From NCBI GenBank assembly GCA_965261735.1, contig OZ253470.1, forward strand, positions 4,160,001-4,224,000: DNA of 64,000 nucleotides, given 5' to 3'. Below, piece by piece: positions 40,783 through 53,885 of the stretch. Every line of letters starts with the position of its first letter. The first letter of the stretch is position 1. Made by a program: the position numbers and the translations under genes. The notes under the pieces are model-generated. The model searched no databases. It was given only the letters and a program-made list of their open reading frames with translations, and was not told the DNA's origin. The stretch comes from Alphaproteobacteria bacterium (lineage in GTDB: Bacteria; Pseudomonadota; Alphaproteobacteria; SHVV01).

Positions 40783-41622
40783 CTACTCCAGCCGCTCGCG
40801 TTCCAGAATCCGCCACCTCGAGAGCCTGGTCTCGGCGAACTGCACGAGCTGCGTCATCAACACGCCGACGAGGCCGATCACGAGAATCGGCACGAACAGC
40901 TTGGCGGTAGCGAAGACGTTCGCGTACTTGATAATCAGGCCGCCGAGCCCGGTGATGGCGGTGAAGAACTCGGCCACGACCATGCCAATAATGGCAAGGC
41001 CGACCGACAGCCGGACTCCGGCCATGATGAAAGGCACCGACGCCGGTAGCGTGATCTTGAAGAAGATCTCTCGTTCGGAGGCGCCGAAGGCCTTGCCGAT
41101 CTCTAGGAAGGATCCGCGGACGTCTTTAATGCCGGCGTAGGTATTGATCATAACCGGGAAGATGGCGATCGAGACGAGGATCGTTACTTTTCCCGTCGTC
41201 TCCAGCCCCGCCCACAGGATCACAAGCGGAACGAGAGCGATACGCGGGATGGCATACAGCGCATTGATGAACGGATCGAGCGTGTACTCGAAAAACCACC
41301 ATTGACCGATCATCACGCCGATGATGATGCCGCCGACGATAGAGATGAACATGCCGAGGAAGAACGGAAACATGCTGGCGGCGAAGCCCTCGACGAGGTC
41401 GCCGTTGAGCAGAATCTCCCAAAACGCCGCGAAAATGGCGCTGGGGGGGGCCATGAACAGCGGGTTCGCCTGCCGGCCCGCGTACTCCCAGAAGATGAAG
41501 AAGATGGCGACCGAGACCGTTCGGATCAGATTCGGCCTATCGCGCAAGTAAGCGATGATAGCTGAGGCCGTGCTCCGCCCTTGTTTGGCGGGGGTGACGA
41601 GCTTGGTCGTCTCGAGGCTCAC
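40783..41622 (-). CDS. ABC transporter permease (SsuC/TauC type)
   Basis: IPRIALVPL, EAA-like FGASEREIF.KITLP, MVVAEFF. Confidence 0.93.
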   Translation of the reverse strand: MSLETTKLVTPAKQGRSTASAIIAYLRDRPNLIRTVSVAIFFIFWEYAGRQANPLFMAPPSAIFAAFWEILLNGDLVEGFAASMFPFFLGMFISIVGGIIIGVMIGQWWFFEYTLDPFINALYAIPRIALVPLVILWAGLETTGKVTILVSIAIFPVMINTYAGIKDVRGSFLEIGKAFGASEREIFFKITLPASVPFIMAGVRLSVGLAIIGMVVAEFFTAITGLGGLIIKYANVFATAKLFVPILVIGLVGVLMTQLVQFAETRLSRWRILERERLE

Positions 41623-42452
41623 TTGCGCTCGCTGCGCAACAGCCCGCGGATGTGGGCGCGCGCCGAGATGAAGTTGGGGTTGCTGCGCGGGTCGCCGCTC
41701 GCGCGGTCCGTCGCCAACGGCGAATCGATCATCTCTTTGATTTGGCCGGGCCGGGCCGTGAACACGATGATACGGTCCGAGACGACGAGCGCCTCATCGA
41801 TGCTGTGGGTAACGAACAGCACGGTGGTGCGCAGGTCCTGCCAAATCTCGAGGAAGTCTTCCTGCAATTGTTCGCGCGTTTGCGCGTCGAGCGCACCGAA
41901 CGGCTCGTCCATCAGGAGCAGGATGGGCTTGCGCATCAAGGCCCGGGCGATGCCGACGCGCTGCTGCATGCCTCCGGAAAGCTCATGCGGGTAGTGTCCC
42001 TCGAATCCCGTCAGTCCGACCACACTGAGATAGTGCGCGGCGACGTCCTTGCGCTCTCCCTTCGATACCTTGTCGAGCTCGAGCGGAAACTCGACATTGC
42101 CCTGCACCGTGCGCCACGGCAGGAGGCCGAAGTCTTGAAACACCATACAGGCATCCTTGCGCGGCATCTCGACGATGTCGCCAGCCACCCGCACCTCGCC
42201 CTCGTCGCAGGTGAGGAGCCCGGCAACGATGCGCAGCAGCGTCGTCTTGCCGCAGCCGCTCGGGCCAAGAAGGGACAGAAACTCGCCGGCCTGGACGCTG
42301 ATGGAGACGCGGTCGAGCGCGGTCATCATTTCGCCCGCCTTGATGTCGCCTTCTTCGGTCGCCGTCCGCACTCGGAAGCGCTTGATGACCTGATCGATCG
42401 ACACCATCGTCGAATCGGTCGCCCGCGCTGCGCTCTCAGTGGTTACGCTCAT
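41619..42452 (-). CDS. ABC transporter ATP-binding protein (SsuB/TauB type)
   Basis: GPSGCGKT, LSGGMQQR, DEPFGALD, VTHSIDEA. Confidence 0.96.
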   Translation of the reverse strand: MSVTTESAARATDSTMVSIDQVIKRFRVRTATEEGDIKAGEMMTALDRVSISVQAGEFLSLLGPSGCGKTTLLRIVAGLLTCDEGEVRVAGDIVEMPRKDACMVFQDFGLLPWRTVQGNVEFPLELDKVSKGERKDVAAHYLSVVGLTGFEGHYPHELSGGMQQRVGIARALMRKPILLLMDEPFGALDAQTREQLQEDFLEIWQDLRTTVLFVTHSIDEALVVSDRIIVFTARPGQIKEMIDSPLATDRASGDPRSNPNFISARAHIRGLLRSERK

Positions 42453-42528
42453 CGCTTCCCGCCGTTCAGGGCTGTACTGGCAATAGGATCGGGCAAACGC
42501 CCGAGTCCCCCCTTTTGACCCGGCTGCG

Positions 42529-51916: not shown

Positions 51917-52744
51917 TCAGCGCCGCAGGAAGTCCTCCACGACTTGGTTGAACTTTTCGGGGTGCTCGCTCTGCGGCAAATGGCCGCATTCCTCGAAGAC
52001 GACCAGCTCGGCGTTGGGCATGCGCGCTACGCCCTTTTCGTGCCAGCGCCAGTCCGCCCGGATGTCGTTGCGCCCGACGATGACGAGCGTCGGCGCGGCG
52101 ATCTCCTCGAGTCGCGTGAATACGCGCAGCGTGTCCGATTCGGCGGCGCCCTTCAGGCCCGTGAGCGCCTGGCGGTAGCCGTCCAGGCGGTCGGGGATGG
52201 CGTAGGACGTGAGTTCGGCCAGCAAGATCTCGTCAGGCACCGTCGCCGGATCGTGAACGATCGTGGCGAAGCGTTCGTGGCACGTCTCCCAGGTCGGGTT
52301 GAGGAACGCTCGCGACGCATTCTCGTAAGCCGCGTCGAGTGTCCTGACGACGTCCTCTGGCGGATTGAAGGTCGAGCCGCTGCCGATGATGACGAGCTTC
52401 TCGATGCCCTCGGGCCGATGGAAGTAAAGGAGCGCCGACAGGATACCGCCGTAGGAGCTGCCTCCGGCCGAGTAGCTGTCGTGCCCCACCAGCTCCATGA
52501 AGCGGTCGAGATGTTTGACGACGTGAGGCTGCGGCGGCTCGTCGCCGAAGTCGACGTGGTCGGTGAAGCCGTGGCCGAGTACGTCGGGGGCGTAAACGGC
52601 GAACTCGCGCGCGAGCACGTCGATGTTGCGCACGAACATATCGCCCGAGGTGCCGACTGGATGGGTGAGGAGGAGCGGCCTGCCGCTCCCCTCGTGCAGG
52701 TAGCGGGTGCGCACCCCGTCGACGTCAATAAAACTGACCTTCAT
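51917..52744 (-). CDS. alpha/beta hydrolase (MhpC/BphD-like), paralog
   Basis: PDVLGHG, GSSYGG, GRND, CGHLPQSEHP. Confidence 0.9.
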   Translation of the reverse strand: MKVSFIDVDGVRTRYLHEGSGRPLLLTHPVGTSGDMFVRNIDVLAREFAVYAPDVLGHGFTDHVDFGDEPPQPHVVKHLDRFMELVGHDSYSAGGSSYGGILSALLYFHRPEGIEKLVIIGSGSTFNPPEDVVRTLDAAYENASRAFLNPTWETCHERFATIVHDPATVPDEILLAELTSYAIPDRLDGYRQALTGLKGAAESDTLRVFTRLEEIAAPTLVIVGRNDIRADWRWHEKGVARMPNAELVVFEECGHLPQSEHPEKFNQVVEDFLRR

Positions 52745-52874
52745 GGACCGGGCTCCCGGACGCCTCCGCAAAGTGAGGCGGCTCTGCAGTGCCTAGCTGC
52801 GGGCGCCCGGCGCGGCGCAGTCGGGCGAGCCCGCCGGGGGAAGAACCCCCGGCGAAACTTACATGATGGCGCGC

Positions 52875-53885
52875 TCAGGCGAGGAAGGGGCGCTTCTCCG
52901 GCGCTTCGTTCGCCAGGGCCGCAAAGTCAGGACCGCGGGTGTAGTAGAACTCGAGCAGCAGCTCGTCGGGATCGCGCAGGAAGAAGGCCCGCTTGGCGAC
53001 ATTGTCGACCGACATCTCGATGGTGACGCCTTGCTTGGTGAGCGCGGCCTCGGCTTGCTCGACCGATGCCTCGTCGGGCATTTCCAGTCCCACGTGGTGG
53101 TAGCCGACCTCGAGACCCGGCGCCTGCGTGAAGACCGCGCAATGGTAGTCGCGCGTCGATGCCTGGCCACGCAGGAAGGCGTAGCTCTTGTCGGGCGCGG
53201 CGTAGGCCACGTCGAAACCGGCGATCTGGGTGTAGAAATCCAGGAGCCGGTCGAAGTCACTGACGATGAAGACGCCGCGTCCGGCCCGCAACGGGTGGAC
53301 GGGCGCTTCCTCGACCACGTCGAACTTCGGGTCGGGGTCCCACAGCGCCTCGGTCAGCGGGGGCGGATCGCCCGGCGTCCATTGGCTCGTGATCAGCCCG
53401 AGGTCGCCGTTGCCATGGAATATCGCGCGCCAGTCGCGCGTCATGTCGGCATAGAACTCGTGGATGTTGCCGTCGGGGTCGAACACGTAAATGGCGTGCG
53501 AGCCGCCGTGATCGAGGCAGCGGCTGATCTCGTAGCCGGAATCCATGGCGCGCCCGTAGGCCTCGACCAGATGCGCCTCGTTGTCGGTCTCCCAGCCAAA
53601 ATGGTTGAGCCCCGGGCCCTTCCAGTGGCCCTGGATCGACTGCACCTTGCCGTCCTTGCCGACGCGCGGCTTCTCGCTCGCCTCGACGAGGCCGAAATCA
53701 TGGTGCGAGTTGCCGTTCGACAGGAACCCGGCCTTGATCGAAGCCTCGCGGCCGACCGGCGCGAAACCGCAGACCTTGTTGTAGAACTCGATCGAGCGGA
53801 CATGGTCGCTGACGTATAAATTGGCGTGGCCGAGCCGGCGTGGCTCGAACCGAACCGCCTGCTTCGCCTGTTCTTGCACGCTCAT
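52875..53885 (-). CDS. two-domain VOC protein, extradiol-dioxygenase-like
   Basis: RRLGHANL, HHDFGL, LNHFGWE, DHGGSHAIYVFDPDGNIHEFY; second domain YHHVGLE, RDPDELLLEFY. Confidence 0.85.
   Translation of the reverse strand: MSVQEQAKQAVRFEPRRLGHANLYVSDHVRSIEFYNKVCGFAPVGREASIKAGFLSNGNSHHDFGLVEASEKPRVGKDGKVQSIQGHWKGPGLNHFGWETDNEAHLVEAYGRAMDSGYEISRCLDHGGSHAIYVFDPDGNIHEFYADMTRDWRAIFHGNGDLGLITSQWTPGDPPPLTEALWDPDPKFDVVEEAPVHPLRAGRGVFIVSDFDRLLDFYTQIAGFDVAYAAPDKSYAFLRGQASTRDYHCAVFTQAPGLEVGYHHVGLEMPDEASVEQAEAALTKQGVTIEMSVDNVAKRAFFLRDPDELLLEFYYTRGPDFAALANEAPEKRPFLA

Follow-up and report, generated by a model that had tools for sequence, protein, structure and literature searches.

Within a 64,000-nt stretch of an alphaproteobacterial genome (Alphaproteobacteria bacterium, GCA_965261735.1, contig OZ253470.1, positions 4,160,001-4,224,000 of the forward strand; hereafter the window, and G000 for its own genome), we analyzed an operon encoding five heme-oxygenase-like dimetal oxidases (HDOs), a term that we use for proteins matching PF14518 (Haem_oxygenas_2). 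Fourteen co-oriented genes occupy the minus strand from 40783 to 53939, in the order that a first-pass annotation of this DNA had given: reading down from 53939, VOC, hydrolase, HDO1, hydrolase, substrate-binding protein 1 (SBP1), HDO2, SBP2, HDO3, permease, TcuA-like flavoprotein, HDO4, HDO5, ATPase and permease (Table 1). Intergenic gaps within the operon range from -4 to 156 nt, and G+C at third codon positions (GC3) is 0.83-0.88 across all 14 open reading frames (ORFs), as is typical of real genes in a genome of 62-70% G+C. The VOC gene probably begins downstream of its longest ORF start, since homologs of 333-341 amino acids cover 95% of the longer ORF. By joining an importer and ring-opening enzymes to five HDOs, this 14-gene operon suggests a route for the breakdown of small ring compounds that has not been described. 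Throughout, Pfam and NCBIfam profiles were scored against their curated cut-offs (28.9 bits for PF14518 and 22 bits for PF03070), and L-numbers denote loci.

Table 1. Features of the operon and its flanks, in window coordinates (aa, amino acids)
Feature	Coordinates	Strand	Profile match or remark
VOC, two-domain, extradiol-dioxygenase-like fold	52875-53939	-	PF00903, 95 bits; likely start 53885 (336 aa)
a/b hydrolase 1 (meta-cleavage product hydrolase-/enol-lactonase-like), conserved core	51917-52771	-	PF00561
HDO1, type a	51188-51901	-	PF14518, 68.1 bits; six ligands present
a/b hydrolase 2	50342-51163	-	51% identical to hydrolase 1
SBP1, NMT1/THI5-like, RR-type signal peptide	49227-50291	-	PF09084, 73.5 bits
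HDO2, type a	48446-49168	-	PF14518, 81.4 bits
SBP2, NMT1/THI5-like	47198-48289	-	PF09084, 86.2 bits
Stem-loop, 14 pairs (11 G-C), downstream of SBP2 and upstream of HDO3	47152-47186	-	
HDO3, type a	46420-47124	-	PF14518, 79.9 bits
ABC permease 1, Ssu/Tau/Sao-like	45557-46390	-	PF00528
TcuA-like FAD flavoprotein, fumarate-reductase/urocanate-reductase family	44021-45520	-	NF006130, 621 bits
HDO4, type a	43275-43973	-	PF14518, 71.4 bits
HDO5, type c	42529-43227	-	PF14518, 71.2 bits
ABC ATPase	41619-42452	-	PF00005, 111 bits
ABC permease 2, 4-nt overlap with ATPase gene	40783-41622	-	PF00528, 88 bits
Five-Sel1-repeat protein gene	39854-40735	+	adjoins operon
HMGL-like gene	38781-39767		downstream flank of operon
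IS1595-family insertion sequence	54945-56054	+	PF12762, PF12760
Aldo/keto reductase (AKR)	57399-58409	-	PF00248

All five HDOs match PF14518 at 68-81 bits, with longest ORFs of 232, 232, 234, 240 and 237 amino acids, and the motifs EE.TG, H..LY, A.E and VH..AD.DH that the first-pass annotation had read from them are present in 5/5. In a profile alignment, E81, H93, E147, H178, D182 and H185 of HDO5 fall on E81, H88, E142, H174, D178 and H181 of CtCADD (1rcw), the CADD metal ligands. None of the six varies among the aligned homologs (70/70), and each of the five operon HDOs has all six, giving the 3-His/3-carboxylate ligand set on the core helices. The CADD-type ligand spacing proposed for the paralogs is therefore borne out: all six positions align with CADD, and the ligand residues are kept. 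By these sequence features, HDO1-5 are CADD-like dimetal HDOs, predicted to activate O2 at an Fe/Fe or Fe/Mn site. An AlphaFold2 (AF2) model of HDO5 (pLDDT 92.6) is an all-helical bundle with the seven-helix heme-oxygenase-like fold, for which Foldseek returned CtCADD (8va9) as the best match (TM 0.84/0.91, 21% identity), followed by PqqC, FlcD, HrmI and UndA, with probability 1.00 for CtCADD and these. The superfamily and fold are shared with UndA, BesC, SznF, HrmI, FlcD and AetD (probability 1.00, query-normalised TM 0.73-0.83), although these enzymes are 12-19% identical to the window HDO.

When a profile of the five HDOs was compared with solved structures, the top matches were the 4-aminobenzoate synthases 9pj4 (4e-16) and CtCADD (1rcw, 3e-12). 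With CtCADD also the closest fold, we asked whether the HDOs could be self-sacrificing p-aminobenzoate (pABA) synthases of the CADD/NePabS type. CtCADD and NePabS, which are Fe/Mn enzymes, resemble the window HDOs in the seven-helix fold, the six 3-His/3-carboxylate positions and a length of about 230 amino acids. At ~21% identity, however, they carry Tyr27 and Lys152, lack the motif L[HY]NHN[YF]HG that is invariant in the window's HDO family, and have a folate context in place of the window's importer and ring-cleavage genes. In PMC9522330, the peptide HMLEHTFYVK fixes the sacrificial Tyr27, which Lys152 neighbours. The Tyr27 column of HDO1-5 reads W, W, W, W and F, and the Lys152 column R, I or G. 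Because both self-sacrificial residues are replaced, HDO1-5 are not pABA synthases. The five HDOs score 68.6-83.2 bits with TIGR04305 against a cut-off of 200, the operon has no folate genes, and 5-21 single-turnover enzymes per genome would be implausible, so that we find this identity barely credible.

Neither of the other named families with this fold accommodates the HDOs. PqqC is rejected at no more than 32.3 bits with TIGR02111 (cut-off 240), two of the five HDOs giving no match, and there are no pqq genes in the operon. TenA is rejected on PF03070 scores of 0-31 bits, always far below those for PF14518, and on the invariant metal ligands. Scoring with the Haem_oxygenas_2, TENA_THI-4 and PqqC profiles, the check that had been suggested for the paralogs, thus groups them with neither TenA nor PqqC, and a search of the ESM Atlas found only generic clusters named TENA or PqqC. 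We conclude that the window HDOs belong to the HDO superfamily and to no characterised HDO family.

The TenA comparison bears on a different reading of the whole operon, in which it would serve pyrimidine or vitamin salvage, with a ThiXYZ-like importer supplying thiamine-derived aminopyrimidines for a TenA-like, non-redox hydrolysis. The SBPs are NMT1/THI5/ThiY-like, and ThiXYZ/TenA systems also set an NMT1/ThiY-type SBP and ABC importer next to a protein of TenA/HO-like fold. Three of the five HDOs exceed the PF03070 cut-off (31.3, 24.2 and 29.4 bits), and Cys131 is invariant in the HDO family, with a Cys in the same column of CADD. Against this, PF14518 always scores far higher, and metal ligands that are invariant in the family would be needless for a metal-free hydrolase; these ligands, the extra ring-cleavage genes and the many paralogs set the window apart from ThiXYZ/TenA salvage. 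Salvage would also leave unexplained the five copies, the dioxygenase-fold VOC, the two hydrolases of meta-cleavage product (MCP) type and the 21 HDO matches in the genome, and we judge it very unlikely.

To resolve the relationships among the paralogs, which had been described as an array or a heteromer, we built a quick maximum-likelihood tree (IQ-TREE, 97 sequences, SH-aLRT support). Pairwise identities among HDO1-5 span 55-84%. One clade (support 98) unites HDO1-4 with the HDO encoded after the SBP gene in related operons; HDO2 and HDO3 are sisters (support 99) and 84% identical, and HDO4 is 71-74% identical to HDO1-3. HDO5, 55-59% identical to HDO1-4, is joined (support 99) by the HDO encoded before the ATPase gene in related operons, and this group is sister (support 99) to 36 single-copy HDOs of other Alpha- and Betaproteobacteria. 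The HDO2-SBP1 and HDO3-SBP2 modules are a tandem duplication with 82.5% nucleotide identity (48425-50186 against 46398-48160), and the two SBPs are 69% identical. Together with the HDO1-4 clade, these identities indicate that HDO1-4 are recent duplicates that arose partly as HDO-SBP modules. The five are not equally old: the tree shows HDO1-4 to be copies of a single type, duplicated within this lineage, and places HDO5 in a second, older type. The clade of type-a and type-c proteins is small, with 28 of 1.84 billion cluster representatives reaching E 1e-30, many of them fragments.

Parts of the operon are also found elsewhere in the genome. A second, partial copy at G000:C1:636156-643160 (L072), 99.7-99.9% identical, has the order permease 2, ATPase, insertion sequence (IS), 3' part of the TcuA-like gene, permease 1, HDO3, SBP2 and IS, and lacks HDO4 and HDO5 as well as the 5' portion of the TcuA-like gene; its HDO3, at 641159, is 100% identical to that of the window. 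An identical permease-NMT1 SBP-HDO module likewise occurs twice, at G000:C1:2586342-2589100 (L078) and 3085468-3088221 (L079), adjoining IS66 and IS1595 transposases, with the L079 module framed by two Amidohydro_1 genes (Amidohydro_1-permease-NMT1 SBP-HDO-Amidohydro_1).

We next looked for the operon in other genomes. A scan of one genome per species gave 71 loci; one of them, L001, is a 100% match from this same organism. In L002, L003, L004 and L042 the genes run VOC-VOC-hydrolase-SBP-HDO-permease-HDO-HDO-ATPase-permease, with an extra upstream HDO in L002, L004 and L042, and a 3.8-kb contig (L045) holds a fragment of this core, for a total of 5/70 loci outside this organism. In L090, Pfam matches give the same core order with an AKR gene upstream and an HMGL-like gene downstream, as in the window; the AKR gene (13116-13979) lies 62 nt upstream of the first VOC gene, in the orientation of the operon. 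The combination of HDO, VOC, hydrolase and SBP, whose recurrence the first-pass annotation had named as a check, thus recurs in other genomes (L002-L004, L042 and L090), and since both the core and its flanks recur in relatives, the operon is an inherited chromosomal feature of the lineage. Hydrolase 1 has orthologs in L002-L004 (59-62% identity). Hydrolase 2 has no counterpart in L002-L004 or L042, and among 55 long loci the TcuA-like gene is found in L001 only. The TcuA-like gene and the second hydrolase, which had been listed among the genes of the pathway, are therefore confined to this genome's version and absent from the conserved core; judged by comparison of the loci, these two genes and the extra HDOs are additions in this genome.

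The conserved partner enzymes point to ring cleavage. An AF2 model of the VOC protein (pLDDT 93.4) superposes on catechol 2,3-dioxygenase (1mpy) with a VIA Z of 25.5 and a root-mean-square deviation of 2.6 A over 259 residues (Foldseek E 4.7e-18), and it has the two-domain type I extradiol fold of four beta-alpha-beta-beta-beta modules. A phmmer search of the VOC sequence against the PDB gave only one spurious TPR match. Three residues of the N-terminal domain, H20, H95 and E143, show no or almost no variation across 54 sequences. This domain may house the active site, which on sequence grounds would make the protein an extradiol-type enzyme with a switched active domain. The spacing of H20, H263 and E312 possibly matches that of PcpA/LinE-type hydroquinone dioxygenases; the fold-match lists contain no PcpA entry. 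Both a/b hydrolases have MCP hydrolases (DxnB2, HsaD and BphD) as their closest or second-closest solved relatives (E ~1e-22), the best for hydrolase 1 being the MCP hydrolase 4lxg (E 7e-22), and both miss all NCBIfam equivalogs (BphD, 62.8/68.7 bits vs a cut-off of 462; HsaD, 66.2/91 vs 400).

The TcuA-like protein is well above the cut-off of NF006130 (369 bits) and below that of TIGR02485 (296.6 vs 372.55). TcuA needs a TcuB partner, and there is no TcuB-like gene among the 14 operon genes. The PDB relatives of the TcuA-like protein are flavocytochrome c3 (3e-39) and urocanate reductase (1e-26), together with soluble fumarate reductases. We also found a natural fusion of VOC and HDO in one reading frame (P0046, 400 amino acids; L015 710-1945), which joins a one-domain VOC to a type-c HDO, and its cluster contains at least three sequences of 400 amino acids. 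The existence of this single-ORF fusion argues that VOC and HDO are functionally linked.

In these respects the operon parallels the meta-cleavage pathways (XylE/BphC with BphD/HsaD/DxnB2), with which it shares a two-domain VOC of extradiol fold and a/b hydrolases related to MCP hydrolases. Unlike those pathways, it has no Rieske or flavin ring-hydroxylating oxygenase, in whose place stand the HDOs; its VOC has the conserved triad in the N-terminal domain, and equivalog cut-offs are missed. By analogy, the operon resembles a meta-cleavage pathway that an ABC importer supplies and in which HDOs replace the ring-hydroxylating oxygenase.

The importer consists of two SBPs, both with signal peptides, two permeases and one ATPase. 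The solved relatives of SBP2 are 4nmy (7e-11), 3qsl, THI5/THI13 and ThiY (3ix1). In NCBIfam, the ATPase and permeases come closest to taurine, SaoA/SaoP and SsuC models, as would be expected if the operon scavenged sulfur or nitrogen, that is, if Ssu/Tau-like import of sulfonates or amines were followed by O2-dependent C-S or C-N cleavage by the HDOs to release sulfite or ammonia, and not by carbon catabolism. Two TauD-family genes near a type-related HDO (L076) and the many amidases and amidohydrolases among HDO neighbours fit such a role. The match to these transporters is nevertheless distant: the ATPase scores 238 bits with the taurine-type model NF008421 (cut-off 357), the permeases 93-127 bits with SaoP, TauC and SsuC models (cut-offs 295-347), and the SBPs 46.3 and 38.6 bits with SsuA_fam (cut-off 163.5), so that SBPs, ATPase and permeases all fall outside the Ssu/Tau sulfonate importers. 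The solved relatives of the SBPs are of NMT1/THI5/ThiY type, with no TauA or SsuA structure at E <=1e-3, and the presence of the VOC and two MCP-type hydrolases suggests that a carbon skeleton is broken down. We regard scavenging as unlikely.

To explore what the HDOs might act on, we examined the neighbours of HDO5 relatives (tblastn, E <=1e-12, at least 50% query coverage). Among 55 loci of at least 12 kb, the large subunit of a molybdenum (Mo) hydroxylase was found in 21, an a/b hydrolase in 20, RidA in 16, VOC in nine and an NMT1-type SBP in eight. When loci of any length were counted for the 36-member sister clade of HDO5, 24/36 had the Mo-hydroxylase large subunit and at least 20/36 had RidA; HDO5 is the ortholog of these HDOs. 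Pfam annotation of nine sister-clade loci adds the other two Mo-hydroxylase subunits (medium and small), a further HDO that is more divergent, Amidohydro_2 and CMD genes, TRAP and TctC transporters, UbiD and a quinolinate phosphoribosyltransferase. The neighbouring Mo enzymes are of the XDH/CoxL family and reach none of the curated NCBIfam cut-offs. N-heteroaromatic rings are what Mo-hydroxylases of this family hydroxylate; RidA acts on enamines and imines, which it deaminates, and carboxylates are the cargo of TRAP and TctC systems. These neighbours lead us to infer that N-heteroaromatic carboxylates are the likeliest substrate class.

Such loci recall the degradation of nicotinate (nic) and picolinate (pic), which starts with Mo-hydroxylases and continues with a second hydroxylation by flavin or multicomponent monooxygenases, not by an HDO. 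Like nic and pic pathways, the HDO5 relatives adjoin Mo-hydroxylase subunits, a decarboxylase-type Amidohydro_2 gene, RidA and carboxylate transporters; the window operon, in contrast, has no Mo-hydroxylase.

HDOs are greatly expanded in this lineage. The window genome has 21 PF14518 matches in four sequence groups, and all seven of the other genomes of the GTDB family (7/7) have several, at 33, 23, 23, 21, 20, 15 and 6 matches. Among 33 genomes from other families of the class, four have 1-2 matches, and the rest have none. Within the window genome, HDO genes lie beside an amidase gene, with two TauD-family genes near the HDO (L076), beside Amidohydro_2 (L075), and between a Rieske oxygenase gene and Amidohydro_2-TRAP (L073). 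Other arrangements are HDO-TRAP-Amidohydro_1 with a TetR gene (L080), NMT1 SBP-HDO-CoA transferase-penicillin amidase (L081), a/b hydrolase-HDO-HDO (L082) and HDO-HDO-ATPase-NMT1 SBP-permease with a divergent FAA hydrolase gene (L084), and there are HDO loci with hydantoinase A/B (L083) and with VOCs and an amidase (L085). NMT1 SBPs stand near HDOs in L078, L079, L081 and L084.

In relatives, we observed two further arrangements. In L087 (5564-10131; genome G002), five different HDOs stand in tandem ahead of genes for an ABC ATPase, a permease and the large subunit of a Mo-hydroxylase, which gives this bacterial family another kind of HDO array; L089 has the order HDO-FAA hydrolase-bicupin.

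These contexts are unlike those of known HDOs. In the available sections of a 2026 review (PMC13108848), about a dozen HDOs are given as validated, all of them in natural-product or cofactor biosynthesis; UndA, BesC, SznF, HrmI, FlcD and AetD are found one to a natural-product cluster, with fatty or amino acids as their substrates. On that precedent, the window HDOs might tailor a natural product or cofactor derived from amino acids or fatty acids, with the other genes of the operon in tailoring and transport. The operon, however, has five HDOs and the genome 21 matches, in uptake and hydrolytic contexts; its SBP-dependent transporter is an importer; and no nonribosomal peptide synthetase (NRPS), polyketide synthase (PKS), ribosomally made and post-translationally modified peptide (RiPP), aminotransferase or ligase gene lies in or beside it. 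HDO neighbourhoods across the genome are hydrolytic or catabolic, and no NRPS, PKS or other biosynthetic hallmark was seen in those scanned in this genome and in L087 and L089. We judge a biosynthetic role very unlikely.

We therefore favor, with modest confidence, a role in import and degradation, in which small aromatic or N-heterocyclic acids would be taken up and oxidised by the HDOs before their rings are cleaved and hydrolysis follows. The first-pass annotation had proposed a unit of uptake plus catabolism, and this is upheld by the signal-peptide SBPs with their importer, the extradiol-fold VOC and the MCP-hydrolase-like hydrolases. The substrate class, the action of the HDOs on the imported compound, the type of reaction and the order of steps are inferred from these genes. 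The substrates would be small polar ring compounds, most likely N-heteroaromatic or hydroxy-aromatic carboxylic acids, which the two NMT1/ThiY-type SBPs would pass, as related substrates, to the one ABC importer. In the cytoplasm, the ring would be hydroxylated, or oxidised in some other way, by the O2-using CADD-like HDOs, the four type-a HDOs each probably tuned to a substrate variant and the type-c HDO5 probably acting at a shared later step. The two-domain VOC would then open the ring, the MCP-type a/b hydrolases would cleave the ring-fission product, and the TcuA-like flavoprotein would dehydrogenate the resulting carboxylate.

Several observations weigh against this assignment. One concerns the ring-cleavage step: the VOC position equivalent to XylE H153 is Arg203 (R in 25/54 homologs and H in 23/54), and although H263 and E312 of the C-terminal domain are kept, the canonical C-terminal 2-His-1-carboxylate iron site is incomplete. 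Of the earlier proposal of a ring-cleaving VOC, the extradiol-dioxygenase fold thus stands and the canonical iron site does not, and with the first His of that site replaced, dioxygenase activity is not assured. Among the 14 operon genes there is no obvious reductase or ferredoxin to donate electrons to a monooxygenase cycle. The transporter is equally near to taurine/sulfonate and to pyrimidine systems, and it misses all curated cut-offs. No characterised homolog ties this HDO clade to a reaction, the names of its members ('PqqC', 'iron-containing redox enzyme') being automatic, and the validated HDOs covered in the available sections of PMC13108848 are all biosynthetic. The neighbour counts rest on related, non-independent genomes, and in the stretches scanned no Mo-hydroxylase lies beside any HDO of this genome. 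There is no regulator beside the operon, and the ORFs between it and the insertion sequence have no Pfam match. RNA libraries speak partly in favor of the operon: contigs from four RNA-library runs (two studies), mostly at least 99% identical, cover 29, 25, 21 and 19 of 30 operon bins, and one contig of 1066 nt spans the HDO3/SBP2 junction. The sequences are thus present in RNA libraries, which proves neither transcription nor a single transcript. Their depth is higher over the SBP genes and near zero over hydrolase 2, HDO1 and hydrolase 1, and contig depth cannot rank genes. Two RNA runs labelled as sponge metagenome contain only 0.10-0.12 of the words, which is no evidence of habitat.

Within and around the operon, we noted further features. 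The stem-loop between SBP2 and HDO3 may be an intra-operon element that stabilises or attenuates RNA; in a promoter and terminator scan, counts were not above those of shuffled sequences. Upstream, the IS1595 element interrupts a minus-strand gene between the operon and the AKR gene. A ~90% identical paralog at G000 2250018-2251149 has the two flanks of this split gene (54061-54949 and 56055-56306) joined without a break, and this intact paralog (L086 1942-3105, 387 amino acids) has a weak methyltransferase-domain match only. The window AKR is possibly a former first gene of the operon or simply a syntenic flank. On the other side, the operon is adjoined by the Sel1-repeat gene, and a similar Sel1 gene lies near an HDO in L040. 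Genome-wide, there are 106 near-full-length copies of IS1595, each spanning no less than 1050 of the 1110 nt at 97.6% identity or more (median 99.5%), and a further 141 partial pieces; in sum they account for 190.6 kb of the 5.03-Mb genome (3.8%). The copy number and near-identity of these elements indicate a very recent IS burst.

Full-text literature searches, whose coverage leaves out most subscription journals, found no catabolic HDO, and the claim that no pathway of this architecture has been described agrees with these searches and with the available sections of PMC13108848. We add a broader and more tentative proposal, in which we have less assurance than the degradative role of the operon: these could be the first catabolic HDOs, with one alphaproteobacterial family having placed HDOs in the ring-activating role of Rieske and flavin oxygenases and radiated them to 15-33 copies per genome, each wired to its own SBP or transporter and to ring-cleavage or amide-hydrolysis enzymes. 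The window operon would then be a recent burst of that radiation, with four new paralogs and a duplicated SBP.

The HDO superfamily has >10,000 orphan members, and the field is without ways to assign their functions. An HDO clade encoded in importer operons offers a direct route, in which a screen for the ligand of the cognate SBP would name the substrate of the enzyme, and at about 230 amino acids the window HDOs are attractive as biocatalysts. If the catabolic assignment is true, they represent a new class of O2-dependent, ring-activating catalysts in the degradation of aromatic compounds and N-heterocycles, one that would explain the livelihood of an uncultured, IS-ridden lineage.

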